Shown one piece after another: positions 27,688 through 50,903 of a stretch of DNA of 50,903 nucleotides. The notes under the pieces are model-generated. The model was not told the origin of the DNA, did no database searches, and worked only from the letters and a program-made list of their open reading frames with translations. The stretch spans positions 1,160-52,062 of the forward strand of contig JBKBWT010000001.1 of assembly GCA_046314415.1 (NCBI GenBank), read 5' to 3'. Position 1 is the stretch's first letter; each line of letters starts with the position of its first letter. Both the position numbers and the translations under genes were made by a program. The stretch comes from Saprospiraceae bacterium. GTDB lineage: Bacteria; Bacteroidota; Bacteroidia; Chitinophagales; Saprospiraceae.

Positions 27688-27695
27688 TCTTTTTT

Positions 27696-27710
27696 GTAGC
27701 GGCGACAGGA
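27696..27710. repeat. attL: 15-bp direct repeat GTAGCGGCGACAGGA (duplicate of the tRNA-Met 3' end)
   Basis: It is identical to 37328-37342. The flanking T-runs are also similar (TTTTT-GTAGC versus TTTTTCGTAGC). Confidence 0.8.
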
Positions 27711-27862
27711 ATTGTATGTTTACAAACTGCAATAAACTTTGAAAAATATTTTTCTCTCCTTTTTACCTGATAATCAGTTTATTACAAGTTTTTATTTATC
27801 AAAGTTTGTCTTTTTGAATAATTTTATTGTAGTAAATAGATACTAATTTCGTACTAATAAGT

Positions 27863-27870
27863 TACTTTTG
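27863..27870 (+). promoter_or_regulatory. candidate -7 box TACTTTTG (TAnnTTTG) upstream of the integrase gene
   Basis: Motif match 14 nt upstream of the integrase ATG, which implies a very short leader. Confidence 0.25.
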
Positions 27871-27883
27871 TATTCAGATACAA

Positions 27884-29194: not shown

Positions 29195-29339
29195 ATAATT
29201 TGCTTACACTTTAAACATAAAATAATTACACTGTACGATGACTTTAACCGACTTGTAACGATGACGTAAAAAACCGGCGCTGACACTCCGCCAAGACTGA
29301 ACAGCGCCGGAATTTTTAAAGCTAAAAATTTTTACAAAG

Positions 29340-30821: not shown

Positions 30822-30824
30822 GCA

Positions 30825-31067
30825 ATGAAATGGATAATCAATCTATGCCACGATACAAAAGCAAGTTCCGAAGGTGAAAAATATTATATCAATGCTTATA
30901 AAAATGGTAAAGTGGTAAATGCAACCACTCATTTATTTAGCAAGGAAATAAAAGTTAAACCCGTTGTCGGCAATCAAATTCACCACGGAAATGCTATTTA
31001 CCAGATCAAAAAGGTTGAGCAAATTACCGCATTTGGAGACGATAACCATTATATGATTTTTGTATAA
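30825..31067 (+). CDS. hypothetical protein (80 aa)
   Basis: ATG-initiated ORF 3 nt after the preceding stop. I recognise no family. Confidence 0.5.
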   Translation: MKWIINLCHDTKASSEGEKYYINAYKNGKVVNATTHLFSKEIKVKPVVGNQIHHGNAIYQIKKVEQITAFGDDNHYMIFV

Positions 31068-31084
31068 TTCGTAAGTAAATAACC

Positions 31085-31369
31085 ATGAATAATAAACCAA
31101 TAGAAAGCCCTGAAAACAAAGCTTTAGCCATTTTGGACGATGCACAAATCAAAGACCCGGCAGACGCATTAGAAATGCTCGAATGTCTGGGTAATGTATT
31201 CGCCTTTTACTTTGGGCATTTCCCAAGGATAAGAGGCGTAGAATTCGATGAGGAATGGACGGATAAAGTTTTTTATGTACATGAAAAATTGGCAGAGCTT
31301 GTAAAGAAAGGGCATCTTTTACTAAATGAAGTTTCAAAAAAGACTGATTGTCAAACCATTAAAAAGTAA
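31085..31369 (+). CDS. hypothetical protein (94 aa), paralog of the next ORF
   Basis: It shares the motif L..L.n.F.FY..H.P.I.G ... Y.V...L..L with 31375..31641. Confidence 0.55.
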   Translation: MNNKPIESPENKALAILDDAQIKDPADALEMLECLGNVFAFYFGHFPRIRGVEFDEEWTDKVFYVHEKLAELVKKGHLLLNEVSKKTDCQTIKK

Positions 31370-31374
31370 ATAAC

Positions 31375-31641
31375 ATGTCAGCAATATTATATGAATATAA
31401 AGCACCACAGCAAGATTTTAACCCGGAGGAAATCCTCGAACGGGCTGGATTACGAGAGCTTGATTTGAATATCAAGTCTTTACAAATTCTCAATGAAATG
31501 TTTGTGTTCTACCTGGCACACTATCCTCAAATATTTGGCTTGCCTTGTGATAGCCGTTTTCACGATATATACGGGGTGTGCGACCGGCTTTCTGGCTTGA
31601 TCGTCAATGCTCAACTCTATTTTGAAAAACAAGAAGAATGA
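31375..31641 (+). CDS. hypothetical protein (88 aa), paralog of the previous ORF
   Basis: Compare LQILNEMFVFYLAHYPQIFG here with LECLGNVFAFYFGHFPRIRG in the preceding ORF. Confidence 0.55.
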   Translation: MSAILYEYKAPQQDFNPEEILERAGLRELDLNIKSLQILNEMFVFYLAHYPQIFGLPCDSRFHDIYGVCDRLSGLIVNAQLYFEKQEE

Positions 31642-32011
31642 CCTGGAGTAAGTGTCCACCCGTTTTTAAGCGTGTGGACACACTAACTAATGTAATACGA
31701 TAAAAAAAATTGATTTTTTTTTGTAACAGTCAGTAGGATATAATTTATTGACAATTAAGTTAAGTATAATCATAAAATTGAAATTAAACACCTTTTTTTA
31801 TCGTACTACATTGGTTTTCAAAGCGTGGGGTATTGCAAAATTATCACTGTTTTGTTACTTTTGTTGCAGCTACTAGGGATAACAAGTCAAACCCACGCTA
31901 TCAAAACACATCATTGAACGCTTTCTAAAAAACTACGGAAAAGATAAGACCTGTCAATTTTAATGCTACGCATTAAGCGTACCAATATTTTATCATTTAT
32001 TCAATAATAGT

Positions 32012-32302
32012 TTGAAAATGAAGCAATTAACCATTCTTGCAAAAAAGATTGAGGCACTTACTTTAGAGGTGCAAGCTATTCGGTACTGCATGGAATCCCC
32101 TTCCGTTCCTGGTAATTTTAAAGACAGTGATCTTTTAACAAAACAAGAGGTTGCAGCGCTTTTAAGTGTTTCGTTATCAAGCATTAACGTGTACATGAAA
32201 AACGGAACATTAAAGCCATTGCATTTTGGTACGGGTAAGCGGAAAATTGTCCGTTTTCGCCGGTCGGATGTGCAATTACTCATTTCACAAAAAGCGGCGT
32301 AA
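32012..32302 (+). CDS. excisionase-type helix-turn-helix DNA-binding protein (likely start ATG at 32018)
   Basis: LLTKQEVAALLSVSLSSINVYMKNGTLKPLHFG...IVRFRRSDVQLLI is the MerR/excisionase-like HTH_17 pattern. The track start is TTG. Confidence 0.7.
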   Translation: MKMKQLTILAKKIEALTLEVQAIRYCMESPSVPGNFKDSDLLTKQEVAALLSVSLSSINVYMKNGTLKPLHFGTGKRKIVRFRRSDVQLLISQKAA

Positions 32303-32622
32303 TGGAAAACCCATTTGAAATACTTTCACAGAAATTAGATCAGGTGTTAACGGAGCTTTCAGAGCTTAAAACGAAGCACCAGGAGCCACCGGCAGCGCCT
32401 ACACCGGCGCCACCGGCATTAGAGCCTGAAAAGCGATTTTACAAGGTAAAAGAAGCTGCTTTTATTTTAAGTTGTTCAGCCGGTACGATTCGCGGGTACA
32501 TCAGAACGGGGAAATTGAAAGCTATAAAGAATGGGCGAGGCATAAACGGAACAGTACGAATAGAAAACACTGAAATTGAGCGATTTATCCAATCTATGAA
32601 ACAAAAAAAGGTTGACCTATGA
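32302..32622 (+). CDS. excisionase-type helix-turn-helix DNA-binding protein
   Basis: FYKVKEAAFILSCSAGTIRGYIRTGKLKAIKNG...VRIENTEIERFI matches the same HTH pattern. The start overlaps the previous stop (TAATG). Confidence 0.7.
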   Translation: MENPFEILSQKLDQVLTELSELKTKHQEPPAAPTPAPPALEPEKRFYKVKEAAFILSCSAGTIRGYIRTGKLKAIKNGRGINGTVRIENTEIERFIQSMKQKKVDL

Positions 32623-33968
32623 CAGCCAAACCTTCTAAACGAAATTTTACGAATAATACGGGCAAAGATAACGGGTTATTGCCTGAAAATCAAGCGGAAA
32701 CGAAAAAAGTTGTCGTTATTCCTGCTGGTGCAGATGCAAACGAGCCAACCAGACAGGAACAAGCGGATTCAGAACAAAGCGAAGGCAAGTTAGACCCACG
32801 TTTAAAAAACCTGGAGGACAAACTCCGCAAAAAGTGGACTTTCCGGTATAATTCTGTTACTTGCTCAACGGAAATTCAAAATGGCAAAAAATGGACTCGC
32901 TTAGATGATTTTACCCTGCATTCAATTGTAAGAGAATTAAGAAAAGAAGGCGTTGCACTTGCCAGTAAAACCCGCGTTGCTGAATTGCTAGAAAGTGATT
33001 TTTGCAAGAAGGTAAATCCAATTGAACAATATTTTGAGAACCTCCCAAAACCTGGCAACCGTGACTACATTTTAGACCTGGCAAAAACCGTAATGCCAAC
33101 AGATGATTATACTATTGAAACCTTTTACAAATTTTTCAAAAAATGGTTGGTTGGCGCTGTTGCCAACGTCTTTATAAAAGATCGATGTGCAAACCAGGTT
33201 TGTTTTATTCTTTCCGGGAAACAAGGCGCTTTTAAATCTACCTGGATTCGCAATTTATGCCCTCCAGCGCTGGAGCCGTACTACATTGAAGGCGGTTTAG
33301 ACCCCGATGATAAAGACAGCATTGCCGCCACTACATCAAATTTCATATTCAATTTAGATGACTACTTCGCGGGAATCACTTCGCGTAAGATCAACGAATT
33401 CAAAGGGTTATTAACAAAAAATACGGTCAAGATACGCCGACCGTATGCCCGTTATTCCGAGGAAATGCCCAAAATCTGTTCGTTCATTGCGTCATCCAAC
33501 GAACAAACATTCCTCCATGATCCGACCGGCAACCGGCGCTTTTTGCCTTTTGAGGTGCAAGCGATTGACATTGAAGCCGCTAAGAAGATAGATATTAATT
33601 CAGTTTGGGCGAAGGCTTACCAGGAATATAAAGCAGGCTTTGAATATTGGCTGACTAAAGATGACCAAACAGAATTGGAAAGACATAATACCAGGTTTGA
33701 AGTTCAAAGTTCTGAGTATGAGTTATTAGTGCAATGCTTTAGAAAGCCGGAAACCGGGGAAAAAGGTATAATGCTTACCACGCAAAACGTCATTGATAGA
33801 ATAAAGGAAAACCTTGGTACTTCTATGACATTTTCCCAAAAGAAGATAGGAGAGGCGCTGCGAAAAGCAGGCTTCGAGCGGAAATCTTGCAGAGTTGGAG
33901 GAAAAGCGCCGGTTTATGCCTGGGAAGTAATGACAGTTGAAATGCCAGACATAGAAGGCGAAAAATAA
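32619..33968 (+). CDS. VirE-family (virulence-associated protein E-like) P-loop NTPase, replication helicase/primase-associated
   Basis: 449-aa ORF. It has a Walker-A-like LSGKQGAFKSTW, then FNLDDY...EFKGLLT...IRRPYARY...ICSFIASSNEQTFLHDPTGNRRFLPFEV, which matches the VirE (PF05272) pattern. It has an ATGA start/stop overlap with the upstream ORF. Confidence 0.85.
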   Translation: MTAKPSKRNFTNNTGKDNGLLPENQAETKKVVVIPAGADANEPTRQEQADSEQSEGKLDPRLKNLEDKLRKKWTFRYNSVTCSTEIQNGKKWTRLDDFTLHSIVRELRKEGVALASKTRVAELLESDFCKKVNPIEQYFENLPKPGNRDYILDLAKTVMPTDDYTIETFYKFFKKWLVGAVANVFIKDRCANQVCFILSGKQGAFKSTWIRNLCPPALEPYYIEGGLDPDDKDSIAATTSNFIFNLDDYFAGITSRKINEFKGLLTKNTVKIRRPYARYSEEMPKICSFIASSNEQTFLHDPTGNRRFLPFEVQAIDIEAAKKIDINSVWAKAYQEYKAGFEYWLTKDDQTELERHNTRFEVQSSEYELLVQCFRKPETGEKGIMLTTQNVIDRIKENLGTSMTFSQKKIGEALRKAGFERKSCRVGGKAPVYAWEVMTVEMPDIEGEK

Positions 33969-33986
33969 CAGTCTTTTGCTCATTTT

Positions 33987-34194
33987 ACTTACTACATCTT
34001 ACTACAAGTAAGTAAACAATTGAAATACAGATACTTAAATGTAGTAAGATAGATTTTGGAAGTTACTACAAAGTTACTACAACTTACTACAAAGTGAATT
34101 GTAGTAAGTTTTACTGAAAGCAAAAGAATATCTTACTACACTGTAAGTAATTAATTATCAATAAAATACAGTGGTTTGTAGTAACGTAGTAAGA
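33987..34194. repeat. iteron-like array: 10 copies of the core TTACTACA (6 forward, 4 inverted) within 208 bp
   Basis: Forward copies are at 33987, 33997, 34061, 34072, 34082 and 34131. Inverted copies (TGTAGTAA / GTAGTAAG) are at 34040, 34100, 34177 and 34185. The array lies between the VirE-like and primase-like genes. Confidence 0.85.
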
Positions 34195-34235
34195 TAAAAC
34201 ACCAAAGTTCAAAACTTTTTAAAATTTACTTAATC

Positions 34236-35282
34236 ATGGAATCAGTTTTGAATGTGAATGTAAGTTGTTTTGCCAACTACACCAGCGCAGACAACCCGCG
34301 CCCGGTGAACCTTTTGCGCTGGCTGACTTCCGATAAATACCGCGCCGAAGTAGAAGCGATCCGCCAAACCAGCGACAAAGCCGACCGTGACCGATTAAAG
34401 GCAAAATTACCAGCTATCACACCGAGCGGACTATTTACACGCCGGGAAGCTGGCTGTTTGGTGCAACATTCCGGTTTACTCCAGTTTGATATTGACTTCA
34501 AAGAAAACCAGCACATTGCCAATTTTCCAGACCTCAAAAAGCAGCTGTGCAATATCAAAAACGTGGCTTATTGCGGGTTATCCGTTTCCGGCGCTGGCTA
34601 CTGGGGTTTGATACCCATATCGGAGCCACAGCGCCATAAAGAACACTTTGAAGCCTTGCGCCAATACTTTGCCGACCTTGGGGTAATGCTTGACGATAAG
34701 CCCAAAAACGTGGCTTCTTTGCGTGGCTATTCCTACGACCCGGAAGGATATTTCAACCACAGCGCCACGCCTTACCGGCAGTATATCCAAGCGGAGCCGG
34801 AACGATACGAGCGCCGATCAGCGCCACAGCCGCGCCCACAGTCCACAGAAGCGGAAAAGGTAGAGGCGATCCTTTCACAGATCAATGCAGGACGCATAGA
34901 TATTACCGGCAGCTATGGCGATTGGTTTGCAATCGGGTGCGCCCTGGCTAATACCTTTGGCGAAGCTGGCAGGGATTACTTTCACCAGCTGAGCCAATAT
35001 CACAGCGAGTATAGCTATAAGAACACAGACCGGCAGTTTGACCACTGCAAGCGAGGCAAGGGAGGCAAAAGCATTGCCACACTATACGAGATTGCAGAAC
35101 GGTACGGCGTACTTTACCGCAATGGATTGAGCGCCGCTCCAGCGCCACCACAGCGCCACCAGGCAGCAAAAAGAAACGCATTGCCACCAGGTCACACGGT
35201 AAAGCAGTTCACTAGCGTGCTGACTGGTGTATCCTTCGACCTGGAGTTAGACGCGCACGGCATACCGGCAATGTGGCGGTGA
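34236..35282 (+). CDS. primase-like protein (BT4734-like/VirE_N N-terminal domain plus PriCT-type C-terminal domain)
   Basis: 348-aa ORF. The N-terminal part KAKLPAITPSGLFTRREAGCLVQHSGLLQFDIDF matches the BT4734-like pattern. GSYGDWFAIGCALANTFGEAGRDYFHQLSQYHSEY resembles the primase C-terminal (PriCT) motif. Confidence 0.7.
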   Translation: MESVLNVNVSCFANYTSADNPRPVNLLRWLTSDKYRAEVEAIRQTSDKADRDRLKAKLPAITPSGLFTRREAGCLVQHSGLLQFDIDFKENQHIANFPDLKKQLCNIKNVAYCGLSVSGAGYWGLIPISEPQRHKEHFEALRQYFADLGVMLDDKPKNVASLRGYSYDPEGYFNHSATPYRQYIQAEPERYERRSAPQPRPQSTEAEKVEAILSQINAGRIDITGSYGDWFAIGCALANTFGEAGRDYFHQLSQYHSEYSYKNTDRQFDHCKRGKGGKSIATLYEIAERYGVLYRNGLSAAPAPPQRHQAAKRNALPPGHTVKQFTSVLTGVSFDLELDAHGIPAMWR

Positions 35283-35593
35283 AAACTTGCAATTATGCGT
35301 GCATATTTCCCCAAAATTTGCCCAAACTTAATTAAGCAAAAGCAAATCCGCGCCCTAGGGTATATGCGTGTAAGAAGGGTAATATTTTGAAAATCAAGCA
35401 AATAAAAGCCTTAAAACAAATACTTTATATGTCGAGGTATGTTACAAACTTTTTGTGTGAATTAAAATTTTATTTTACAGTATTTATTATTGTTATTTTT
35501 AATTTAAAATGTACCTAAAAAAAGGTAGTAATTCACTGTCCTTTCAAAAAATGACCCTTTTTTGCACCTTGCGACAGCTAAAAAATACTAGCA

Positions 35594-36286
35594 ATGAAGA
35601 AATTTTTTAATCTTCTGAAATCCAAGAAAATGAAGAATTTAGAACCAATTTTGTTAGATGAACGTACCGATCGTTCAGAATTGCAGTTGCTTCAGCTGAA
35701 GCAGCGCCGCGAAGAAAGTTATTCCCTCCTGGAAGCATTGCGCGTTGCCCTTGAAAAACTTTTAGGCGAAGCGCCCGACTTACACCAGATTGAGCAATTT
35801 ATCAGAATTTCAGACGAAAAAAGCGCCACGATTGAAGCTCTTAAAACTTATATGAAGGTCAAGCAAATAGACCTTGATATAGATTTAAATAGTGGATTTC
35901 AGAGCGTTCGCCTTCCTGGGGAGGTAAAGACGTTGGTTGACGCCTGGCAAGCCCTCAATTGGCACTCCCCGGAAGATTTTTCTCCGTATTGGTCGCAAGA
36001 AGATTTTGCCTTTCAACCGCTGCCAATCAACCCGGAAGAAGAAGCGAAAATCAGAGAGCGAAACCGGGTCTATGGTACGCAGGAACTCAATGAAATGTAC
36101 CAACATTTACGCATCAATTGCAACCTGATAAATTTTTATCGCAGGGAGAATCCTACATTACCATTTGATGCCTTTCCAAAAGTTTGGCAACCGTTTTTGA
36201 ACCGGGATGACAAAGGCAATTTTACGGTCAAGGAATCAGAATTTTTGACGCCTGGAGAGACTTACCAGGCGTTTGACGAAAGATAG
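35594..36286 (+). CDS. hypothetical protein (230 aa)
   Basis: ATG-initiated ORF with protein-like composition. I recognise no family. Confidence 0.55.
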   Translation: MKKFFNLLKSKKMKNLEPILLDERTDRSELQLLQLKQRREESYSLLEALRVALEKLLGEAPDLHQIEQFIRISDEKSATIEALKTYMKVKQIDLDIDLNSGFQSVRLPGEVKTLVDAWQALNWHSPEDFSPYWSQEDFAFQPLPINPEEEAKIRERNRVYGTQELNEMYQHLRINCNLINFYRRENPTLPFDAFPKVWQPFLNRDDKGNFTVKESEFLTPGETYQAFDER

Positions 36287-36377
36287 CATCTTGTTTTTTT
36301 ATCATATGTTGGTTAAAATCGTTTTTACTGCCGTCCTTAATTGGACGGCATTTTTCAAATCAAAATGAATAATTATC

Positions 36378-36818
36378 ATGCAGAATAATGAAGAAATGAA
36401 GGCGAGAATTGAGGCGCTGGAAGCAATTGTCGTGAAACAAAATGAGGAAAATAAAAGGCTTCGAGAGCAGTTAGACGCGGTACAATCTACCATGTCAAAT
36501 GAGGAATTTTTACTCAAAAGTCAGGCAGCAAAAGCGGCGGGTGAAATGCCTACATTCAAAGTTGAGGGCAAACTTTACTGTTTTACCGCTCCAGCTTTCA
36601 AACTGAATGGAATCAAGTACACAGCCTCCGAAGCGGTCAAGGATGTGCGATTGTTAAAGGAAATGATTGAAAAAGGGTACGGTGTCATTAAAGAAGTAGG
36701 GGAGCCGGAAAGCAAGAAAGATTACTCCGCTATTCCAATGATAAGCCGGGAACAAACATTCTTTTCCACACCTAGCCATTCCAGCGATAGCGGTATCCAA
36801 ATCACAGTAGTTGAGTAA
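36378..36818 (+). CDS. hypothetical protein (146 aa) with N-terminal coiled coil
   Basis: ATG start, with a heptad-like segment MKARIEALEAIVVKQNEENKRLREQL. Confidence 0.5.
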   Translation: MQNNEEMKARIEALEAIVVKQNEENKRLREQLDAVQSTMSNEEFLLKSQAAKAAGEMPTFKVEGKLYCFTAPAFKLNGIKYTASEAVKDVRLLKEMIEKGYGVIKEVGEPESKKDYSAIPMISREQTFFSTPSHSSDSGIQITVVE

Positions 36819-36846
36819 AATTTTCCAATTTCAAAAAAGCATTCTT

Positions 36847-37152
36847 ATGAATAAACAACAAGAAACTGACTGGAAACTCCGCTTTCATTACGGGGTAATT
36901 GATGAAGTCAAAGCCTTCTTTGGTTTGTCGGAAGACCTCACACCGGCGGAAGTTCATCACTTTATGATTGAACAGAATAAAGCCAAAGGAACAATGGTTC
37001 CCAGGGCATCCGCACCGGCAGCGCCGGTTACAAAAGTGACGACACCAGCGCCTAAAGTCGAGCCAAAAAAAGAGGAAATACCAGCAACACAAGCCTGGAG
37101 AATGTCAGCCTTTAACCAGCGACTTGAAAAGAAGTTTCGAGGGCAGAAGTAA
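36847..37152 (+). CDS. hypothetical protein (101 aa from ATG 36847; the track ORF starts at TTG 36811)
   Basis: The ORF has a Pro/Ala/Lys-rich linker. The ATG at 36847 avoids overlap with the preceding gene. Confidence 0.45.
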   Translation: MNKQQETDWKLRFHYGVIDEVKAFFGLSEDLTPAEVHHFMIEQNKAKGTMVPRASAPAAPVTKVTTPAPKVEPKKEEIPATQAWRMSAFNQRLEKKFRGQK

Positions 37153-37205
37153 ACATTCAGCAAAGGTTTTTTACATCGGTTACGTTTTTTTTATAAAGAA
37201 GATTG

Positions 37206-37233
37206 AGGCAGCCCAACGGGTTGCCTTTTTTTT
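37206..37233 (+). terminator. rho-independent terminator closing the island gene string
   Basis: GGCAGCCC aac GGGTTGCC forms an 8-bp stem and is followed by 8 Ts. Confidence 0.75.
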
Positions 37234-37273
37234 ATTTCTTTCTGCTAAAGATACTAACCAAAATACTAACGAG

Positions 37274-37320
37274 CGGAAAAGAAAAAGCCTAAAACATTGA
37301 CAAACAATGAATTAGGCTTT
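37274..37320 (-). terminator. terminator of the tRNA-Met gene (island-borne)
   Basis: On the minus strand, AAAGCCTAA ... TTAGGCTTT forms a 9-bp stem followed by TTCTTTTCC, directly downstream of the tRNA 3' end. Confidence 0.55.
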
Positions 37321-37328
37321 GTTTTTCG

Positions 37329-37401
<73 letters not shown>

Positions 37402-37613
37402 ATGTTAAACCACTCTCTCCAACAGGGTATTTTGCTTTTTAGTTCAAAAGAGTCCCCTGTTTTTTAAATGGTTTGCAAAGATAAGTACTTTTCTTAACTT
37501 TGTCAAGTCCTTCCTTAATTAAATATCGCCTAAGCTACCTTTTCGGGTGAAAATACCTGAAATTGCTAGATTTTTATTATCTTCCAACTCAAAGTTTACA
37601 CCTAAATTCCCTT

Positions 37614-40007
37614 ATGCGCTTCTATCTACTTAGCATTTTACTGTGCTTAGTCCATGGGCTGCACGCACAGGTAGTTTGTTCGCCAGAGCAAGCGGAGCTG
37701 GTTATTGAGATTATGACCGACCGCTACGGGTACGAAACTTCCTGGGAATTGACCGGGAGTTCCGGTACACGTTATAAATTTTTGCCGCCATTTAGTTATA
37801 AAAATCAGCGCTTACACCGCGATACGCTCTGCCTGCCAGCAAATGACTGCTTCGCTTTTACAATTTATGATGTATTTGGTGATGGCATTGATGCACCGGG
37901 TTATTATTTGGTGCGCTTAAATGGTGATACGCTCCAGCGAGGCGGCATTTTTTATAAAGAAGAATCTTTATATTTAAATTGCCCATCAGGAATGGTTTGT
38001 GCAGTAGCAACGTCCATCACGCCCGGCACTTACACCGCAGCTTTCGATGATACCTGGTACGAGTTTATCCCTGATACGTCAGGAATTTATCGGATCTCAA
38101 CCCGAAATTTAAATACCTGCGACACTAAAATCTGGGTATATACTACTTGTGATGGCATTACCATTGCCGAGGACAATCAAAGTACGGTTTTTTATAATGA
38201 CAATGCGACCGCGCAAACGCCACAGGCAGAAGTCCGTGGCTTTTTTACGGCGGGCAAAACGTATCGGATTCGCATGGGCGATCATAATAATGCCTGCCGC
38301 GATAGTATTCGCTGGAATTTGACTTTTGAAGGTCCGCTGCGCGGCTGCACCAATCCTAATGCTTGTAACTACAATCCATTGGCAACAATTAACGATGGCT
38401 CCTGTTTGCTGCCGGGCGACCGCCGTTGCCCGAAAGGTCCTGATTTGCTGATTCGTCAGGATACGTTGCTACAATCGATTCGCCTGGATACCATTCATTC
38501 CGAAGACCTCTGCCTGATTCAGGAAGGCTGTGTACGCGGCTATGGGGTACGTAATGTTTTACGCTTTACAACACAAATACATAATATTGGCGAACGCGAT
38601 TATTATATTGGTAAACCAAATTATAATAACAATCAATTTACCTGGAATAATTGTCATAATCACTTTCATTATGATAATTATGCCGAATATTTAGTCATCG
38701 ACGAATCTGGTAAAAAAATGCCCATTGGCTTCAAAAGTGGCTTATGTATTACTGATTTTGGTTGCGAGCCTGGCTATAATCCAAAGTACAGTTGTGATAA
38801 TATGGGCATCAGCGCACATTGCTTTGATGCGTACTGGTCGGCGCTCAAGTGCCAATGGATTGACATAACTGATTTACCTGATGGGAGATACACATTAGTA
38901 GTACGCATCAATTGGAAAAATAGTCCCGATGCGTTAGGGCAAGTGGAAAAAGATTTGGATAATAATATCGCCCAGGTCTGTATTCGCTTAGACCGGAGTT
39001 CAGGCACCTTGAAATGCACCGTCGAGCAACCCTGTGATCCTTACCTCGATTGCGCGGGTATTCCTTTCGGCGAAACACAGCCCGATTGCCTGGGCATTTG
39101 CGGGGGTAAACGTTTATCGGGCGACGCGAATGAAAATGGACTACAGGAAATCGCCGACGCCGAGCAATACATCACGCTGCTGCTCGGTAATGACATCGAA
39201 CCCAATGCTTGTAATGATTTGAATGGTGATAGCGTCATCACGGTACAAGATGCAGTGCTGCTGGCTAGTTGCCTCAATTTTGGCGCGGCGCATCCACACG
39301 AAGGTGCCGGAATACACAATCACTGTCAGTTTCCCGTTGCCAATTTATTTAATACAAAAGATACTGTTACACTTGGCATTATGGGCGTAAACTGGGAGGA
39401 GCGTTACGTAGATATTGGGATTTTAAATCATACAACCAATATTACAGCCTATCAGTTTCGCCTTACGGGTGGCAGCATTAGCCACGTAGAAAGTCTGGTC
39501 GATGCTGCCACTTATCCGGTTACGCTGCGCACAAATATGAGCGAAGGTATGGTGATTGGCTTGTCCTATCGGGATTCGGTCATTCACAAATCAGAATTAA
39601 TGCAGCCGCTTTGTAGAATACATTTTTTTAATTTAAATCTATACACTATTGTAATTCAGGATATTATCTCAATTGTAAATAACAATTATGAACGCGTAGC
39701 CAATGCAATTATAAATGGCATTGCCGTAAAATCCACCACAACTCACATTAACAATATAAACAATATTATACAAGTACAAGTACGTCCAAATCCAATACAT
39801 GACGAAGCGCAGTTTGCTTTTTATAGCATTCAAAATCAGTATTTTACATTAGAAATTGTTGACTTAAACGGAAAGATCGTTCGACAATATGTCAACCTGC
39901 GTCCACCTGGTATCCGCATCAAGCGGGATGATCTGCCCGCCGGTATTTATTTTTATAAACTCATTGGGGAACGCAGCTATACTGCCGGTAAGTTTATTAT
40001 TCAATGA
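37614..40007 (+). CDS. secreted multidomain protein: lysyl-oxidase-like catalytic domain + dockerin + T9SS type A C-terminal sorting domain
   Basis: The track ORF starts at TTG 37563. The ATG at 37614 gives the signal peptide MRFYLLSILLCLVHGLHAQ. The LOX motifs CHNHFHY, KSGLCITD and CQWIDITD are present. Dockerin loops are DANENGLQEIAD and DLNGDSVITVQD. The C-terminus is ...RPNPIHDEAQFAF...LEIVDLNGKIV...LPAGIYFYKLIGE...GKFIIQ (Por secretion tail type). Confidence 0.85.
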   Translation: MRFYLLSILLCLVHGLHAQVVCSPEQAELVIEIMTDRYGYETSWELTGSSGTRYKFLPPFSYKNQRLHRDTLCLPANDCFAFTIYDVFGDGIDAPGYYLVRLNGDTLQRGGIFYKEESLYLNCPSGMVCAVATSITPGTYTAAFDDTWYEFIPDTSGIYRISTRNLNTCDTKIWVYTTCDGITIAEDNQSTVFYNDNATAQTPQAEVRGFFTAGKTYRIRMGDHNNACRDSIRWNLTFEGPLRGCTNPNACNYNPLATINDGSCLLPGDRRCPKGPDLLIRQDTLLQSIRLDTIHSEDLCLIQEGCVRGYGVRNVLRFTTQIHNIGERDYYIGKPNYNNNQFTWNNCHNHFHYDNYAEYLVIDESGKKMPIGFKSGLCITDFGCEPGYNPKYSCDNMGISAHCFDAYWSALKCQWIDITDLPDGRYTLVVRINWKNSPDALGQVEKDLDNNIAQVCIRLDRSSGTLKCTVEQPCDPYLDCAGIPFGETQPDCLGICGGKRLSGDANENGLQEIADAEQYITLLLGNDIEPNACNDLNGDSVITVQDAVLLASCLNFGAAHPHEGAGIHNHCQFPVANLFNTKDTVTLGIMGVNWEERYVDIGILNHTTNITAYQFRLTGGSISHVESLVDAATYPVTLRTNMSEGMVIGLSYRDSVIHKSELMQPLCRIHFFNLNLYTIVIQDIISIVNNNYERVANAIINGIAVKSTTTHINNINNIIQVQVRPNPIHDEAQFAFYSIQNQYFTLEIVDLNGKIVRQYVNLRPPGIRIKRDDLPAGIYFYKLIGERSYTAGKFIIQ

Positions 40008-43972: not shown

Positions 43973-44890
43973 TTACTGATTCGCACGCTGGTTTGTTGGA
44001 TTCTTTTTAACTAAATTAAATAACAAACTGATTTCGTGCGAGCCACTATTAAATTTCTGGAAACGCTGGAACGACATATCATAAGAATACAATACATTGA
44101 AATTAGAGATTTTTGCGCCCAGCAAAATGCCCAATGCCCCCAAGGAGCGGTACGATACACCGGTAATTAGCTGATCTTCCAGGAAAGTAGCCTTCAGGTT
44201 GATGTCCACCTGCGCCGGGGCATCTTTTACGCGCCGGGCCATAATGGAAGGTTCCAGCGAAAAATTCAAATCATAAATATCAAAGCGATGTGCCAGAAAC
44301 AAGGTATAATGTTGTAAGGCAGATTCATCGGTGCTTTCTACTACATCATCCAGGCGGCTTTGAATCAAATTGGCAAAGGACAAACCGAAGCGGGTATTGT
44401 CGCGAATACTACCAAACACACCGATAGAAGCATCAAATTCATTGACACCATTCATGTAATCGTTAATCACATTATCCCCCTCATCCACTCTGCCAAAATC
44501 AGCATTATTATCGAGTCTTAATTGTTGATAGAATGCGGAGAAACCAGCCGACATTTTCACGTATTCACTCAAATTAAAGCGGAAAGCCCAGTTGAGTTGC
44601 CCTTTGAGGCGAGTAAGTTGCGCAGCGGTTTCAGCGGAAACACCTACCCCTATACCAAAATTCTTACCGACCGGGCTATTGAGCATGGCACTAACCGTCT
44701 GTGGAGCATCCGCAAAACCAGTCCACTGCGCGCGCCCGTTCATTTGTAACTGAAAAGTGTTGTTAAAGCCAGCGGCTGCCGGGTTGATGAGAATTGGAGT
44801 AATATGATAATGCGTGAAAATGGCTTCATCTTGTGCCCGTACCACTTGCCAGACAGCGAAAAAAGATATGAGTAGAAGTAATTTTTTCAT
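43973..44890 (-). CDS. type IX secretion system membrane protein, PorP/SprF family
   Basis: 305-aa ORF with a signal peptide, then QDEAIFTHYHITPILINPAAAGF..., the characteristic PorP/SprF N-terminus, and beta-barrel-like composition. It lies immediately downstream of a type B CTD gene. Confidence 0.88.
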   Translation of the reverse strand: MKKLLLLISFFAVWQVVRAQDEAIFTHYHITPILINPAAAGFNNTFQLQMNGRAQWTGFADAPQTVSAMLNSPVGKNFGIGVGVSAETAAQLTRLKGQLNWAFRFNLSEYVKMSAGFSAFYQQLRLDNNADFGRVDEGDNVINDYMNGVNEFDASIGVFGSIRDNTRFGLSFANLIQSRLDDVVESTDESALQHYTLFLAHRFDIYDLNFSLEPSIMARRVKDAPAQVDINLKATFLEDQLITGVSYRSLGALGILLGAKISNFNVLYSYDMSFQRFQKFNSGSHEISLLFNLVKKNPTNQRANQ

Positions 44891-45010: not shown

Positions 45011-48000
45011 TTATTTTCCGCGCAGAATCGTGAGCGAACCTTTTTGCTGTACCAGGTTGCCATCCTTATTGGTGTATTCCAATACAAAGTAATAAGGTCC
45101 ATCCGGCAGTGGGTCGCCACTCTGTGTGGTGCCTTCCCAACCAGATTGATAGTTATCTGCCTGGAATACCAGTTGTCCCCAGCGGTTGTAAATTTCCAGA
45201 TGGTTTTCGGCACTTTCATTACAAGTCACTCTAAAGTCTTCATTAGCGCCGTCTCCTTCCGGTGTAATAATTACTTTATCAACCAAACAGTCAGGATTAC
45301 CCGATTCACCAACAATGCCAGTGGCACTTGGCGCAGTACATCCCCGACTATCGGTCACGGCTACCATATAAGTACCTGCACATAATCCATCAATCATAGC
45401 ATCGCTGCTCATCGGCGCATTCCAGCGGAAAGTATAAGGAGTTGAACCACCTTCCACTACCGCAAGTGCCGAACCATTACAGCCATCTGTAGCCGGTTGT
45501 GTTTCTACTTTAACTTGAATTGGTTTAGGCTCAGCTAATGTAAATGAAGCGGTCACTTTACAATTATTGCCATCCGTAGCTACCACCTGGTAGGTACCAG
45601 GTCCACGATTCAACAAGAATGGACCAGCCTCCTGAGGCGTTGTATTCCATACAAAACTATAAGGTTTGCCAACTGCTCCACCAACTGCGTTTAGTACAAT
45701 TCTACCGTCGGTTCTACCTGCACAGGAAATCTGTTGAATATTGGCAACCACCTGAATCGAATCCGGCGGCACCACATTGATTTGCTTGGTAACCGTACAA
45801 CCAATTGCATCGGTCACCGCAACTTGATAAGCTCCGGCACCTACGCCATTCAATACAGGTGTAGTACCTAATACCGTAGTGCCACGACGCCATTGATAGG
45901 AGTAGTTGCCACTACCACTTTTGCCAGTCGCCTCGATGATACCATCGGTTGAAGTCGGGCAACTAATATCCGAACCATTGTAATCAGAAATCACTTCGAC
46001 ATCTGCATTCAAATTTGAATTGGAGCCAATGGTAAATTGTTTGGTCAAGGTATTACCCGACTGCTCCGTAACGCTCACCGTATAAACACCAGGTGCTACA
46101 TTTTTCAAGGTATCAGCAGTAGAAATTACCGTACCGGCAGCATTCCGCCAGGAATAACCATAAGGTTTGGTGCCTCCGGTAATACTCAATGCAATCACGC
46201 CGGTAGTATCCTGCGGACAAGCGGTGGCAACCGCAGCGCCATTGGCACGGAAAGTTGTCACCGGAATAGCAGGGAAGGTTTGCCGACAGCCATTCGCATC
46301 CTGTACGGTTGCAATAAAATTACCTTCGCAAAGATTGATAATCTGCGTGTTATTGCCGGTATTCGGTGTATTCCATTGTACACTGTAGGGTTGCTTACCT
46401 CCGGAGAAGGTAACACTAATGCTACCCGTACAACCTGACTCTTCGGTATCATGTTTTACCACACTGGCGACTTGAATAGGTGCCGGCTGTGGTACATCAA
46501 CACTGTCGCGTAATATGGTACCGAGATCATCGGTGATGGTATAAACCAACTTGCCACCGCTCAGATTATTCTTGTTTACAGTACCATTGTTATTTGACAA
46601 TGTCGTATTATCACTAAATGCAATGTTATAAGGAGCACGCCCGCCGTTAATCTGGAAGGACAGCGTACCGTCATTGTTGCCTGCACAAGTTACCCCTGTG
46701 ATCTGGCGATTGGCAGTTGAAAGCGGAATATTTTGCTCTGTCACATTGTAACAGCCACTATTCGTACAGCCGCGACTGTCAGTTACGGTTACACAGTATT
46801 CGTCCTTCCGCAAATTCGCCAAAGTATCCTTGGTAGAATTATCTTCCCATCTGATGGTATAAGGACCTGTACCCCCACTGATTGCCAGCACGATTCGACC
46901 ATTTGAACCACCCACACTTGCCTGCGTAATCTGCGCATTGAGTACAATCGGTGGATATTTGGTAATTTCAAAGCTGGAAGTATTGGTTCCTCCTTGACTA
47001 TCTGTAATCGTGACGGTATAAGTACCGGCTGCTACGTTATTTAAGTTTTGCGTGGTTGCACCATTGCTCCAACGGAAAGAATAAGGCGATGCTCCTCCGC
47101 TAACAGTCAGTATCACTGAACCAGTGGTCGTGCCATCACAAATACGATTTGCCTGTCCGGTTACGTTCAACGGTGCAGTAATACTTGCGCAGCGTGTAGC
47201 CGTACAATTCTGTGCATCCGTCACCGTCACACAATACTGGCCCGGCGTAGTCAAACCACTGAGGTCTTTTTGCGTAGAAGTATAATTATTGGGACCCGCC
47301 CAAGCGTAAGTATAAGTACCGGTGCCACCCGTTACCGTTATTGCAATAGCGCCATTGGTACCTTGTTGATTGATATTGGTAGGAACCATATTGCTAACCT
47401 GCACAGTTGATTGCGAAGCAACGTTCAAATTAGTGAGTGCAAACGTACAGCTCCGCGCATCCGTGATGGTAACAGCGTAAGTACCAACTGCCAGATTACT
47501 CTGTGAAGCAACATTGTCGGGCAACGAACCACTCCAGTTATACTGATATGGGCTCGTACCTCCAGATACATTTAAAGTAATGCCACCTGAATTAGCCGCA
47601 GCGCCGCAGGCGATATTGGTAATGTTGGAAGTTGCATTCAACGCGGCAGCTGGTTGGTTGACGTTATAAGTGCCGGTAACTGTCAAAGAAGTCGTTGCAT
47701 CTGTCACCGTTACTGAATACGTACCCGCCGGAATATTGGTCAAATCCTGCGTGGTCGCATTATTACTCCATCGATAGGTAAAATTACCAGAACCACCCTG
47801 TGGGGTAATATTGATAGCGCCCGTCGATTGCCCAAAACAGTTCACCCCTGTGATAGCAGGCACTGCCAGGGTCGGAGCAGCAGGTCCACTGCTACCAATG
47901 GTAACAGTTCCATTTTTAGTAGAGAAAGGCTCCGCTTCCTCATCTATATTATCCACCCCCATTGGTGCGGTAGGCGTTCCGGTAAAACTCAATGCAGCGG

Positions 48001-49735
48001 TTGTACCATTGGCACCAATTGCATTGAAGCAAAGTTGAAAAATGACGCTGCCATTCGGACGATCCACCCCAGCTACTGCATTGTCAAACCAAACCATTGT
48101 AACTAAACCTGCTGTTGTGGGTGGAGCACTGGTAGGTGTACCAAACTGCGCCACGGTCAAATCAGGTAAACCAAATTGCCCAACGGACACAAATTGTAAT
48201 CTGGTTGCATCATATTGTATGCCTAAGGTTATACCAATAATGTCGTTCATATTATCAACCGTCACATCCACACAAACCTGCTGCCCCGACTGAACGGTTT
48301 TATCAGAGATGGAAAATCTTAACTGCCCAGGCTGAGGGTCGCCTCCACCGCCCGTACCCACGGTCACCGTACCATTCTTGCTACTGAAAGTAACAAATTG
48401 AGAATTACCATTTACGATTTCAATTGGCGTGGGACTGGCTACAAAATTTACACTGGAGCTACCAGTAGTCATCAAAATTTTGAAGCATACCTGAAAAATA
48501 TTGGTTCCGTCCGGTATGGTCACGCCTTGAACCGCCGGGTCACTCCACGACACGGTGATCCTACCTCTTGGAACTGCACCTGAACCGGGCAATCCAAAAG
48601 AATTGATGTCTAATCCACTTAGATTAAAGCTGCCGACAGAAACGAATTGTAATTTGGTGGTATCATATTGCAAACTGAATTGCATGAATAGAATGTCGTT
48701 GTACCCCTGTGCGGTTACATCCAAACAAACATTGGTGCCGCTTGGGGCAGTCTTATCAGCGAGGCTTAGTCTGAATGTATTCGTATTACCACCGCCTGAA
48801 GTAATAGATACGGTACCATTTTGACCATTGAATGTTACGGCGCTTCCACCACCTTTGGTCACTACCTGTGCCTGTGGAGCGTTGGTAAAACCTACTACGG
48901 CGTCTCCGGTTGCGGTTGCGGTAAAACAAACCTGATAAATTACGGTGCCATTTGGTCGGCTTACGCCGGCTGCGGTTGCAGGTGTATTCGTCCAGTTAAC
49001 AGTGATTCTACCTTTTGGAACACCGGTGGTGCCTGGTAATCCAAAAGCAGCATTTGTCAAGCCTGCCAAATTAAAGCTACCTACGGAAACAAATTGCAGG
49101 CGGGTTGTATCATATTGTAAGGTATATCTGGTTGTACCAATACTGTCGAAACCCTCGGTCGTAACATCCACACATACCTGCTGCCCCTGGGTTACACTTT
49201 TATTAGAAGCAATGAGTTTGAACGGTGTTGCAGCACTGCCATTTATGGTTACATTACCGGCTTGCCCATTGAAGGTTAAAGAGGATCCCCCAGCATTGAA
49301 AACATCTGGTGGGGTGGGTGTATTACTAAATTCGACTTTTGTAGTATTAGCGGAGTTTAATACATTGAAACACACTTCAAAAATAGTTGTACCGTCGGGG
49401 CGTGTTAACCCGGCAAATGTTTTTTCGTCCCACAATACGGTAATTTTACCTTGTGGAACATTACCTGAGCCGGGAAGACCGAAGCTGCTTGCTTCAGTAA
49501 GATCAGGTAGATTTAAATTTTTAACGGATGCAAATTGAAGTGCGGAGGGGTCATAGCTAATAGAGAATTGAAAACCTAGAATCTGATTGAATCCACTTAC
49601 CTTTATGGGCAAACAAATTTGTTGCCCTCGGTTAGCGGTAGTACTTCCAACACTGAAAGTGACAGTCTGAGCTGCCGCATAGCTGGCGCAAAATAGCAAC
49701 AGTACTGCTATAAAAGGTGTAATGAATCTCTTCAT
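45011..49735 (-). CDS. 1574-aa T9SS type B cargo: 4 tandem cohesin-like modules + 11 SprB-type repeats + gliding-motility-associated (CHU_C) C-terminal domain
   Basis: Signal peptide ...CASYAAAQ. Four ~145-aa modules have the pattern G..vC.(d/p)v.v.gf..i.g.qf.lqYD...LqFvSvg.f.l... (nt 47891-49669). SprB repeats such as CFGQSTGAINITPQGGSGNFTYRWSN follow. The C-terminus is ITPEGDGANEDF...IYNRWGQLVF...GWEG...GPYYFVL...GSLTILRGK. Confidence 0.9.
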   Translation of the reverse strand: MKRFITPFIAVLLLFCASYAAAQTVTFSVGSTTANRGQQICLPIKVSGFNQILGFQFSISYDPSALQFASVKNLNLPDLTEASSFGLPGSGNVPQGKITVLWDEKTFAGLTRPDGTTIFEVCFNVLNSANTTKVEFSNTPTPPDVFNAGGSSLTFNGQAGNVTINGSAATPFKLIASNKSVTQGQQVCVDVTTEGFDSIGTTRYTLQYDTTRLQFVSVGSFNLAGLTNAAFGLPGTTGVPKGRITVNWTNTPATAAGVSRPNGTVIYQVCFTATATGDAVVGFTNAPQAQVVTKGGGSAVTFNGQNGTVSITSGGGNTNTFRLSLADKTAPSGTNVCLDVTAQGYNDILFMQFSLQYDTTKLQFVSVGSFNLSGLDINSFGLPGSGAVPRGRITVSWSDPAVQGVTIPDGTNIFQVCFKILMTTGSSSVNFVASPTPIEIVNGNSQFVTFSSKNGTVTVGTGGGGDPQPGQLRFSISDKTVQSGQQVCVDVTVDNMNDIIGITLGIQYDATRLQFVSVGQFGLPDLTVAQFGTPTSAPPTTAGLVTMVWFDNAVAGVDRPNGSVIFQLCFNAIGANGTTAALSFTGTPTAPMGVDNIDEEAEPFSTKNGTVTIGSSGPAAPTLAVPAITGVNCFGQSTGAINITPQGGSGNFTYRWSNNATTQDLTNIPAGTYSVTVTDATTSLTVTGTYNVNQPAAALNATSNITNIACGAAANSGGITLNVSGGTSPYQYNWSGSLPDNVASQSNLAVGTYAVTITDARSCTFALTNLNVASQSTVQVSNMVPTNINQQGTNGAIAITVTGGTGTYTYAWAGPNNYTSTQKDLSGLTTPGQYCVTVTDAQNCTATRCASITAPLNVTGQANRICDGTTTGSVILTVSGGASPYSFRWSNGATTQNLNNVAAGTYTVTITDSQGGTNTSSFEITKYPPIVLNAQITQASVGGSNGRIVLAISGGTGPYTIRWEDNSTKDTLANLRKDEYCVTVTDSRGCTNSGCYNVTEQNIPLSTANRQITGVTCAGNNDGTLSFQINGGRAPYNIAFSDNTTLSNNNGTVNKNNLSGGKLVYTITDDLGTILRDSVDVPQPAPIQVASVVKHDTEESGCTGSISVTFSGGKQPYSVQWNTPNTGNNTQIINLCEGNFIATVQDANGCRQTFPAIPVTTFRANGAAVATACPQDTTGVIALSITGGTKPYGYSWRNAAGTVISTADTLKNVAPGVYTVSVTEQSGNTLTKQFTIGSNSNLNADVEVISDYNGSDISCPTSTDGIIEATGKSGSGNYSYQWRRGTTVLGTTPVLNGVGAGAYQVAVTDAIGCTVTKQINVVPPDSIQVVANIQQISCAGRTDGRIVLNAVGGAVGKPYSFVWNTTPQEAGPFLLNRGPGTYQVVATDGNNCKVTASFTLAEPKPIQVKVETQPATDGCNGSALAVVEGGSTPYTFRWNAPMSSDAMIDGLCAGTYMVAVTDSRGCTAPSATGIVGESGNPDCLVDKVIITPEGDGANEDFRVTCNESAENHLEIYNRWGQLVFQADNYQSGWEGTTQSGDPLPDGPYYFVLEYTNKDGNLVQQKGSLTILRGK

Positions 49736-49789: not shown

Positions 49790-50593
49790 TTACAGAAAAA
49801 TCAATTTTTGTGTAATAACAAAATCAGGTGATACGAGTAAATATTGATATGCTCCCGGAACCGGAAACATCTCTTTCGTCAGTCGCAATGTATGTAAGCC
49901 ACTTGCCATGAATCGCTGTTCTTCGTGAATCGTCTGTCCTTGTGTATTTTGAATCAGAAGTCGGACTTGCGATGCCGCCTTCAGTTCAAGTTTTACCTGT
50001 GTAAACTCATGAAAAGGATTGGGATAACTGTCTTCGACCTGTACAAGGTGAGGTGCACTATTGTACACATGCGTACTGGTCGCAGCATCTACTCTTACTG
50101 CACCATCTAAATACTTTGCGTCCACTTCGTTCAGGCTGGAATCAGCAATTTCGCGGAGTGCAATATCATCAGTGAAAGATAAGGGACTAATAGCTGCAGG
50201 AGTGCCAATTACCTCGAAATTGATAGAAAAGAGTGTAGTGCTATCATCCAGGCTGCGTCCTTGCAGGGATTCATCATACCACTGGAAAGCTAACATACCA
50301 TCAGCGGTTTTTTGTAATCCGAAACTTTCAACCTGAGGGTTGAGCGATAATGTAAAGTCTCTCACCTCTTTAAAGCGGAGTACGTTGGTATTCCATTTCA
50401 CGGTAAATTGTACGCCGACGATCTTTTTGAAATGAGCTACTTTAATATTAGCCTTATAAATAGTAGATGGGGGTACTATTGCAGTAGGTGCGATAATGGT
50501 AGGTAAAGTCTGTGCTTGTAATGCAAACACTATAGAAAAGCACAAAACACAGGAGAGTATAGCGCTTCCTATCTTTTTCATGGGATCAAACAT
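49790..50593 (-). CDS. secreted protein with one cohesin-like module and a T9SS type A C-terminal sorting domain
   Basis: 267-aa ORF; the start may be the ATG at 50581 (MKKIGSAILSCVLCFSIVFALQAQ). The module reads KANIKVAHFKKIVGVQFTVKWNTNVLRFKEVRDF...MLAFQWYD...TLFSINFEVIG. The C-terminus is YPNPFHEFTQVKLELKAASQVRLLIQNTQGQTI...GAYQYLLVSPDFVITQKLIFL. Confidence 0.75.
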   Translation of the reverse strand: MFDPMKKIGSAILSCVLCFSIVFALQAQTLPTIIAPTAIVPPSTIYKANIKVAHFKKIVGVQFTVKWNTNVLRFKEVRDFTLSLNPQVESFGLQKTADGMLAFQWYDESLQGRSLDDSTTLFSINFEVIGTPAAISPLSFTDDIALREIADSSLNEVDAKYLDGAVRVDAATSTHVYNSAPHLVQVEDSYPNPFHEFTQVKLELKAASQVRLLIQNTQGQTIHEEQRFMASGLHTLRLTKEMFPVPGAYQYLLVSPDFVITQKLIFL

Positions 50594-50736: not shown

Positions 50737-50903
50737 TTATTCTACAACGACCATTTTCTTGGTAGCGTTGAATTCACCAGCCTGGAGGGTGTAGGTCAGC
50801 ACACCGGTAGGCAGGTCAGCTGAGTTCAGGATTACCTGGTTGTAACCCTTCACATAGGAACCTCTCACCAGTTTCACGACTTTACCCGTGATATCCGAGA
50901 TCG
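50737..50903 (-). CDS. C-terminal 55 codons of a T9SS type A CTD-bearing protein (the gene enters from the right window edge)
   Basis: My own translation is ISDITGKVVKLVRGSYVKGYNQVILNSADLPTGVLTYTLQAGEFNATKKMVVVE followed by a stop (TAA at 50739-50737). This fits the Por secretion tail pattern. It is not in the ORF track because it is truncated. Confidence 0.7.
   Translation of the reverse strand, partial: ISDITGKVVKLVRGSYVKGYNQVILNSADLPTGVLTYTLQAGEFNATKKMVVVE

Follow-up and report, generated by a model that had tools for sequence, protein, structure and literature searches.

What does a dockerin-like module do in the middle of a lysyl oxidase that a Bacteroidota cell exports, and what would such a module bind? 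In the textbook picture, Gram-positive cellulosomes are held together by cohesin-dockerin pairs, which also find wide use in protein engineering. The question arises from one gene in a 50,903-nucleotide stretch of Saprospiraceae bacterium DNA (GCA_046314415.1, contig JBKBWT010000001.1; hereafter the window), whose product joins a lysyl oxidase domain to a type IX secretion system (T9SS) sorting domain through an intervening pair of calcium loops and a beta-sandwich. Our analysis indicates that the segment bearing the loops is very probably a true but divergent dockerin homologue, and that the Cys-rich linker before it, the dockerin and the following cohesin-like domain are one unit that is inherited whole and can be repeated. 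As the main partner of the dockerin we favour, tentatively, the cohesin-like domain of its own unit, within the chain or head-to-tail, over the multi-cohesin scaffold encoded nearby. The open reading frame 37563..40007 (+) encodes 814 amino acids counted from a TTG at 37563, and this numbering is used for residues unless P0001 is named; the true start is likely the ATG at 37614, as in public gene calls, which yields the 797-residue protein P0001. The gene and the parts of its product are:

37614..40007 (+): lysyl-oxidase-like gene with a secreted product, 797 amino acids from the ATG (open reading frame list; match to P0001 at 100% identity)
37614..37667 (+): putative signal peptide, MRFYLLSILLCLVHGLHA followed by Q (hydrophobic N-terminus by inspection; helix at residues 2-15 in the AlphaFold2 model)
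38538..38999 (+): lysyl oxidase catalytic domain, residues 326-479 (PF01186, E 9.5e-35)
39033..39110 (+): Cys-rich linker C-x5-C-x11-C-x3-C-G-G, residues 491-516 (C491, C497, C509 and C513 invariant)
39117..39284 (+): dockerin-like module, residues 519-574 (sub-threshold Dockerin_1 match at residues 520-570)
39123-39158 (+), helix to ~39185: F-hand loop 1, DANENGLQEIAD, residues 521-532, a 12-residue loop
39216-39251 (+), helix to ~39281: F-hand loop 2, DLNGDSVITVQD, residues 552-563, a 12-residue loop
39291..39326 (+): H-x-H-x5-H-x-H-C motif, residues 577-588, between dockerin and cohesin-like domain
39348..39728 (+): cohesin-like beta-sandwich, residues 596-722 (predicted fold; predicted local distance difference test score, pLDDT, 90-97)
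39786..40004 (+): T9SS type A C-terminal sorting domain (PF18962, 32.3 bits; TIGR04183, 37.8 bits)

Both loops follow the pattern D-x-[DN]-x-[DN]-[GS]-x5-D, the second is offset by 31 residues from the first, and they lie at residues 521-532 and 552-563, precisely where the earlier note had put them. An alignment of 120 homologues at 44-74% identity has no variation in the aspartates at the ends of both loops (D521, D532, D552 and D563), shows D or N and rarely S at loop positions 3 and 5, and keeps Y536, C550 and C570 invariant as well. An AlphaFold2 model of the full-length protein built on this alignment (mean pLDDT 89.1; predicted template modelling score, pTM, 0.69) places helices at P0001 residues 513-524 and 544-556, each beginning at loop position 10, within a module modelled at pLDDT 89-95, and helix 2 (ITVYDAALLASC) is very strongly conserved. 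The Pfam Dockerin_1 profile (PF00404) matches the full protein at 13.9 bits (E 0.065, profile positions 2-55 of 57) and the isolated segment at 15.5 bits, so the hit that the earlier note expected is present and lies below the gathering cut-off of 22.9 bits. Since the protein's own score falls short, family membership rests on homologues that pass the cut-off, namely P0131 (46.6 bits), P0152 (24.4 bits) and, at E 1.5e-7, the top one among 35 homologous segments that were scanned singly; Dockerin_1 is matched at E<1 in 28 of these segments. Ten solved dockerin chains (2y3n_B, 2vn6_B, 1daq_A and 2mte_A among them) line up in register with the family profile at sub-threshold E-values of 0.08-1.1, and single-sequence and profile searches of the Protein Data Bank (PDB) gave sub-threshold dockerin matches only (E 0.03-1), which back the register and are no proof.

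Could the loops instead be a chance EF-hand-like motif with no dockerin ancestry? The single-sequence E of 0.065 on PF00404 speaks for this, and yet we regard it as extremely improbable. Translated in six frames, the whole window contains just three matches to the expression D.[DN].[DN][GSDN].{5}D, and two of those are this loop pair in one frame, so coincidence is not a serious explanation, and the invariance of the ligand positions, the breadth of Dockerin_1 matches and the homologues above the cut-off effectively refute it. A generic EF-hand or a TSP3 repeat was also considered and rejected, as just one of the 35 segments touches EF-hand models.

Comparison with clostridial type I dockerins (Cel48S, 1daq/2mte; P. 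cellulosolvens Cel48, 2y3n_B; C. cellulolyticum Cel5A, 2vn6_B) gives profile alignments that span whole chains and defines both the kinship and the divergence. The common features are a pair of 12-residue calcium loops in which positions 1, 3 and 5 are D/N and position 12 is D, a helix after each loop, and a near-identical repeat offset (31 residues here versus ~32 in C. thermocellum Cel48S). In loop 1 a conserved Q8/E9 replaces the hydrophobic residue and N/D of type I dockerins, and the recognition positions, 10 and 11, are I-A and V-Q (V-Y in the family) rather than S-T. Two invariant cysteines flank repeat 2, one before loop 2 and one at the end of helix 2, and the short middle helix between the repeats is absent from the AlphaFold2 prediction. 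The earlier note had called this a canonical two-loop dockerin; the loop pair, its invariant aspartates and its helices bear out the dockerin part, whereas "canonical" is too strong because of the sub-threshold score (13.9 bits versus 22.9), Q8/E9, the missing middle helix and the two cysteines around repeat 2. The placement differs as well, in that the oxidase dockerin is internal and followed by a cohesin-like domain and a T9SS tail while type I dockerins are C-terminal on glycoside hydrolases, and its host is Gram-negative, unlike the clostridial cellulosome producers.

We next consider the domain that follows the dockerin. Because LOXL2 and generic beta-sandwich proteins dominate the Foldseek search with the full-length model, a second model of residues 487-739 alone (253 residues) was used for fold comparison; its mean pLDDT is 87.3 and, even with a linker of low confidence, its pTM is 0.81. 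The 14 best PDB matches of this segment model are all cohesins (probability 1.00, E 6e-6 to 8e-4), led by 3kcp_A (E 6e-6) and 6kgf_A (template modelling score, TM, 0.59) and then 1ohz_A, 2jh2 and 2xdh. They include cohesins of C. thermocellum (CipA and 1ohz_A) and C. acetobutylicum CohA2 (target TM 0.57-0.60), cohesin-like modules of C. perfringens and the non-cellulosomal Archaeoglobus cohesin 2xdh, and among chains with a single cohesin the target TM goes up to 0.60; by this fold search residues 596-722 resemble the nine-stranded beta-sandwich of solved cohesins. Similarity at the sequence level is much fainter. Pfam Cohesin (PF00963) has no match in the protein at E<=10 or in the 35 homologous segments at E<=1, a hidden Markov model (HMM) built from Bacteroidota cohesins reaches E >=0.03 at best against the oxidase unit, and hhalign comparison of the unit with the neighbouring scaffold cohesins and the small cohesin protein gives a probability of at most 1%. 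Against a cohesin of the Saprospiraceae cassette described below, hhalign returns a borderline alignment (P 1.5e-4, probability 52%, 94 in-register columns). The models thus support a cohesin fold for residues 596-722 with borderline backing from sequence, which carries the degenerate cohesin-like fold that the earlier note had tentatively suggested here at the level of fold.

A profile of the complete unit (Cys-rich linker, dockerin, His-rich linker and cohesin-like domain) identifies 393 proteins among 1.84 billion cluster representatives, and nearly all of them match over the whole unit, at approximately residues 470-720 of proteins of about 800 amino acids. Nine matches of odd length or architecture were scanned; seven have a lysyl oxidase domain directly upstream, whereas no oxidase domain is seen in the other two (P0144 and P0152), whose sequences start ~35-50 residues ahead of the unit. 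The metagenomic protein P0131 (1936 amino acids) consists of a lysyl oxidase followed by six complete tandem units, each including the Cys-rich linker, and then a T9SS C-terminal domain (CTD), and P0136 and P0165 hold two copies of the unit each. Linker, dockerin and cohesin-like domain are therefore one unit that is inherited whole and is repeatable, and the unit occurs with or without scaffold genes nearby.

Covariation within the unit was assessed by mean-field direct coupling analysis (DCA) of 257 units (effective number, Meff, 236), which mostly recovers strand pairs inside the sandwich. Couplings between dockerin and cohesin-like domain score 1.73, 1.57, 1.36 and 1.31, against a maximum of 1.11 in a block-shuffle control (six shuffles), and they join both dockerin helices to sandwich strands 5, 6 and 8-9 in our own strand count; if the strands are equivalent, as we presume, these form the dockerin-binding sheet of cohesins. 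The pTM of 0.81 for the isolated segment, like the covariation, suggests a rigid pairing of the two modules.

We therefore favour the cohesin-like domain of the same unit over the neighbouring scaffold as the binding partner, with less than even confidence. The protein would be secreted through the T9SS, given a type A sorting domain found by database matches and a signal peptide proposed by inspection, with the unit placed between the oxidase domain and that sorting domain. The dockerin would bind Ca2+ and pack on its own unit's cohesin-like domain; contact within one chain would make a rigid stalk and head-to-tail contact between chains would make oligomers, and either arrangement would hold the catalytic domain out from, or cluster it on, the cell surface. 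More broadly, dockerin-cohesin pairing probably helps to assemble secreted proteins on the cell surface. Several observations weigh against pairing within the unit. In cellulosomes a dockerin does not normally bind a cohesin on the polypeptide that carries it. The protein's own Dockerin_1 score is under the cut-off, and the sequence of its cohesin-like domain is not significantly similar to those of the neighbouring cohesins and only borderline similar to those of the cassette cohesins. The evidence for contact between the two modules consists of the segment pTM and the covariation, shuffling strips shared phylogeny along with contact signal, and Meff is smaller than the alignment length. A genuine multi-cohesin scaffold is encoded 5 kb away, and scaffold genes elsewhere adjoin genes for cassette-bearing cargo; these last two facts favour docking to the scaffold.

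The candidate scaffold and its neighbours lie downstream of the oxidase gene on the opposite strand:

43973..44890 (-): PorP/SprF-family outer-membrane protein, expected scaffold anchor (PF11751, E 2.6e-52)
45011..49735 (-): SprB-like surface scaffold and candidate partner, 1573 amino acids, with four Pfam cohesins (nucleotides 47891-49672, E 1.4e-35)
49790..50593 (-): small single-cohesin protein with a CTD-like C-terminus (Cohesin, E 4.2e-8)
50737..50903 (-): 3' end, encoding a T9SS CTD, of a gene truncated at the window edge (translation matches the C-terminus of a 2067-residue cargo protein in locus L001)

What the earlier note had described as cohesin-like modules in this region are thus genuine Pfam cohesins, four stretches in the scaffold (amino acids 22-166, 169-313, 319-462 and 469-615) and one in the small protein (amino acids 30-175). 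The scaffold also bears 11 SprB repeats and a CHU_C type B T9SS domain (Pfam), and orthologues of the small protein in L001 and L007 combine Cohesin with Por_Secre_tail; a homology search with the scaffold's cohesin region returned at least 10 proteins. According to PMC9143113, proteins with a type B CTD are held in place by PorP-like proteins and type A cargo by linkage to anionic lipopolysaccharide (A-LPS). Compared with the SprB-type type B CTD adhesins treated there, the scaffold has the same SprB repeats, CHU_C domain and adjacent PorP/SprF gene and differs in the four cohesins at its N-terminus, which would make it a scaffoldin-like adhesin. The 2067-residue L001 protein ends in a cassette-type cohesin and CTD and matches an HMM of the dockerin-cohesin cassette at E 1.1e-27; as the fragment at 50737-50903 is orthologous to it, a large cassette-bearing cargo gene probably adjoins the cohesin genes directly here too. 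A second giant surface protein is encoded at 3806-11029 (+) of the window (2407 amino acids, SprB repeats and a CHU_C type B T9SS domain, without a cohesin).

Elsewhere in Bacteroidota (L005, L006 and L001), scaffold and PorP genes are flanked by genes for T9SS cargo in which a dockerin, a cohesin and a type A CTD follow one another. L005 has two such cassette genes, with Dockerin_1 scores above the cut-off (31.1 and 25.7 bits) and cohesins that match the Bacteroidota cohesin HMM at E 1.5e-13 and 3.3e-7, and L006 and L001 have one each. A search with the L005 cassette yields at least 475 clusters from Saprospiraceae, Portibacter and Haliscomenobacter, many with precomputed PF00404, PF00963 and PF18962 matches, under NCBI names such as cohesin-domain, dockerin-domain or T9SS sorting-domain protein. 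The oxidase unit and the cassettes (for example the Portibacter lacus "cohesin domain-containing protein" P0279, and P0302, P0357 and P0379 from Saprospiraceae metagenome-assembled genomes) come from the same bacterial family, have the order dockerin, cohesin, type A CTD in common, and align in register at the YQF, SY and L-x-R/T-h-x-F strand motifs. They differ in that Pfam recognises both cassette modules (PF00404 and PF00963) and not the cohesin-like domain of the oxidase unit, in that the cassettes have a spacer of ~70 residues instead of the His-rich linker and lack the Cys-rich linker, and in that hhalign of the oxidase dockerin against cassette dockerins gives a probability below 2%. 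We read the oxidase unit as a divergent, oxidase-specific version of the Saprospiraceae cassette. In two unrelated loci an animal-haem-peroxidase gene (PF03098, E 3.5e-145) with a T9SS CTD lies a few kb upstream of a cohesin/SprB scaffold (L005 5829-7766; L006 3017-4936). In animals, haem peroxidase and lysyl oxidase are enzymes of the matrix cross-linking type.

How closely is the oxidase tied to the scaffold? The scaffold gene lies ~5 kb downstream of the oxidase gene and the cohesin/PorP/SprF block spans 4-10 kb downstream. L001 (57% identity) and the four closest species loci, L010-L013, all five lying at 53-58% identity, have the same succession of genes: oxidase, thiolase, x, PorP/SprF, scaffold, small cohesin. 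Among 48 species loci with at least 8 kb of downstream sequence, a downstream cohesin gene is present in four, only the closest relatives, and L002-L004 (45-49% identity) have no cohesin gene within 10 kb of the oxidase gene; a conserved operon-like linkage of oxidase and scaffold was rejected on these counts. Because the proximity is limited to the closest relatives and the thiolase gene is kept there too, it may be mere local synteny. In L004 a block at 12-22 kb (ADH, NMO, acyl-CoA dehydrogenase and NUDIX), downstream of a distant oxidase homologue, resembles a block at 1-6 kb in L007 that sits upstream of a small-cohesin and scaffold pair, a likeness that hints at looser, longer-range proximity in some genomes.

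Two other accounts of the unit have to be set beside pairing with its own cohesin-like domain. One is docking in the manner of a cellulosome, with the dockerin bound to one of the four scaffold cohesins or to the cohesin of the small protein (49790..50593), so that the oxidase would be displayed on a T9SS-built surface scaffold along with other cassette cargo while the PorP/SprF protein holds the scaffold in the outer membrane. Genuine Pfam cohesins, SprB repeats, CHU_C and PorP/SprF are encoded 4-10 kb downstream, in an order kept in L001 and L010-L013; scaffold and PorP genes are flanked in L005 by cargo with Dockerin_1 above the cut-off and in L006 and L001 by cassette cargo, the window edge cuts such a cargo gene, and the cassette family is large. 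We nevertheless hold scaffold docking to be somewhat unlikely. The comparative evidence for it is weak because linkage is lost beyond the closest relatives, as the 4 of 48 loci and the three loci at 45-49% identity show, synteny that extends to the thiolase gene may account for the proximity that is seen, and the oxidase dockerin diverges from the dockerins of the cassettes that the scaffolds adjoin.

The other account, which we consider unlikely, takes the unit as a structural calcium module without a specific partner, a Ca-stabilised F-hand spacer followed by the usual Ig-like sandwich before the CTD. Beta-sandwich spacers before the CTD are common in T9SS cargo, and the sub-threshold Dockerin_1 match, the compact full-length model (pTM 0.69) and the confinement of the unit to a single enzyme family, without shuffling among enzymes, are all as a passive spacer would have them. 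A spacer of this kind leaves the very strong conservation of helix 2 and the inter-domain covariation without an explanation; the fold after the dockerin is that of a cohesin specifically and not a generic Ig, and the same dockerin-then-cohesin order recurs in a large family with bona fide Pfam cohesins. Pairing within the unit remains the reading that we prefer over both.

Cohesins and dockerins outside cellulosomes are known (Peer et al. 2009, FEMS Microbiol Lett 291:1, as cited in PMC6487960). The non-cellulosomal modules of Archaeoglobus fulgidus (2xdh) and Clostridium perfringens (2jh2 and 2w1n) are all three among the top fold matches here, and the oxidase resembles these systems in placing its modules on a non-cellulolytic protein outside the cellulosome producers. 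Some non-cellulosomal proteins carry both a cohesin and a dockerin. Unlike those examples, the modules here stand in a fixed, adjacent dockerin-then-cohesin order, form a repeatable unit with up to six copies, and are fused to a lysyl oxidase and a T9SS sorting domain. Non-cellulosomal modules, lysyl oxidases of Bacteroidetes and the automatically annotated canonical cassette are thus already known. The literature searched contains no description of a fixed dockerin-cohesin unit on lysyl oxidases or of its tandem amplification, none of SprB-like cohesin scaffolds beside cassette cargo and, under searches combining dockerin with T9SS or Saprospiraceae, none of such a system.

At this locus the cohesin-dockerin pair appears as a fixed, repeatable unit on a copper lysyl oxidase that bears a type IX secretion signal. 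Should this unit mediate assembly, T9SS cargo would have a second means, besides A-LPS attachment and PorP anchoring, of being organised on the surface, and there would be a way into the question of what bacterial lysyl oxidases do; should it be a structural stalk only, it would still be a useful case of a dockerin and a cohesin merged into one folding unit. A more ambitious proposal, which we put forward as speculation with the odds well against it, is that Saprospiraceae build a T9SS-based counterpart of the cellulosome, where SprB-like multi-cohesin scaffoldins with a PorP anchor would use dockerin-cohesin units to recruit type A cargo. Because each unit carries one dockerin and one cohesin, such units could daisy-chain, and the cargo would include matrix-type cross-linking oxidases, with lysyl oxidase here and haem peroxidase by the L005 and L006 scaffolds. 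If true, Gram-negative cells would have a surface assembly of enzymes whose task is not polysaccharide breakdown.

The enzyme itself is, judged by its sequence, probably an active amine oxidase of the lysyl oxidase type, in line with the earlier note's view of it as LOX-like. PF01186 scores 120.5 bits against a cut-off of 20.4, and alignment to human LOXL2 (5ze3) shows that the copper-binding His triad CHNHFH (CHxHxH) and the Lys (GFKSGLC) and Tyr (CFDAY) of the lysine tyrosylquinone (LTQ) cofactor are kept, all of them invariant or at least 90% conserved in the 120 homologues. In the Foldseek search with the full-length model LOXL2 5ze3 is the best PDB match. The bacterial protein has the catalytic fold, the copper His triad and the LTQ Lys and Tyr in common with animal LOX and LOXL2, and unlike them it is without SRCR domains or a propeptide and adds two N-terminal beta-sandwich domains, the dockerin-cohesin unit and the T9SS tail. 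Lysyl oxidases are known in Bacteroidetes, and the prokaryotic ones are mostly single-domain (2015 survey, PMC4448552). The family comprises 833 clusters in a word-indexed search, and in a collection of species genomes at least 551 matches were confirmed, most of which belong to Saprospiraceae, Lewinellaceae and Phaeodactylibacter. Cultured carriers are P. xiamenensis KD52 (L041) and P. luteus, and L018 (OZ245894.1) and L061 are among the complete genomes with the oxidase. Export through the T9SS, which the earlier note had also proposed, agrees with the C-terminus, where Por_Secre_tail (PF18962) lies at residues 742-813, both sorting-domain profiles exceed their cut-offs (27 bits for PF18962 and 23 bits for TIGR04183 from NCBIfam), and the fold match is a T9SS-bound substrate CTD (8glk_D, TM 0.84).

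Smaller conserved elements surround the dockerin and the oxidase domain. In the H-x-H-x5-H-x-H-C motif the 120 sequences show no change at H585, H587 or C588 and at least 90% conservation at H577 and H579, and all five are invariant in the 35-sequence set; the motif is modelled at low confidence (pLDDT ~59) and is possibly a metal site for Cu or Zn. A second invariant Cys motif, GC-T-[DN]-P-x-x-C-N-Y-N-P-L-A-x-x-[DN]-D-G-S-C, is encoded at ~38346-38410, 5' of the oxidase domain. Neither it nor the Cys-rich linker at 39033-39110 has a Pfam family, and both are likely disulfide knots.

Directly upstream of the oxidase gene lies a 9.6-kb integrative element (27690-37346). Its edges are 25-nucleotide direct repeats (27690-27714 and 37322-37346) that are identical at 23 of 25 positions, the right one overlapping the 3' end of a tRNA-Met(CAT) gene at 37328-37401 (-), and its genes include a tyrosine integrase (27884-29194), a VapE-like protein (32619-33968) and a PriCT/BT4734 primase (34236-35282). 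The corresponding position in L001 is occupied by cytochrome c and nos genes.

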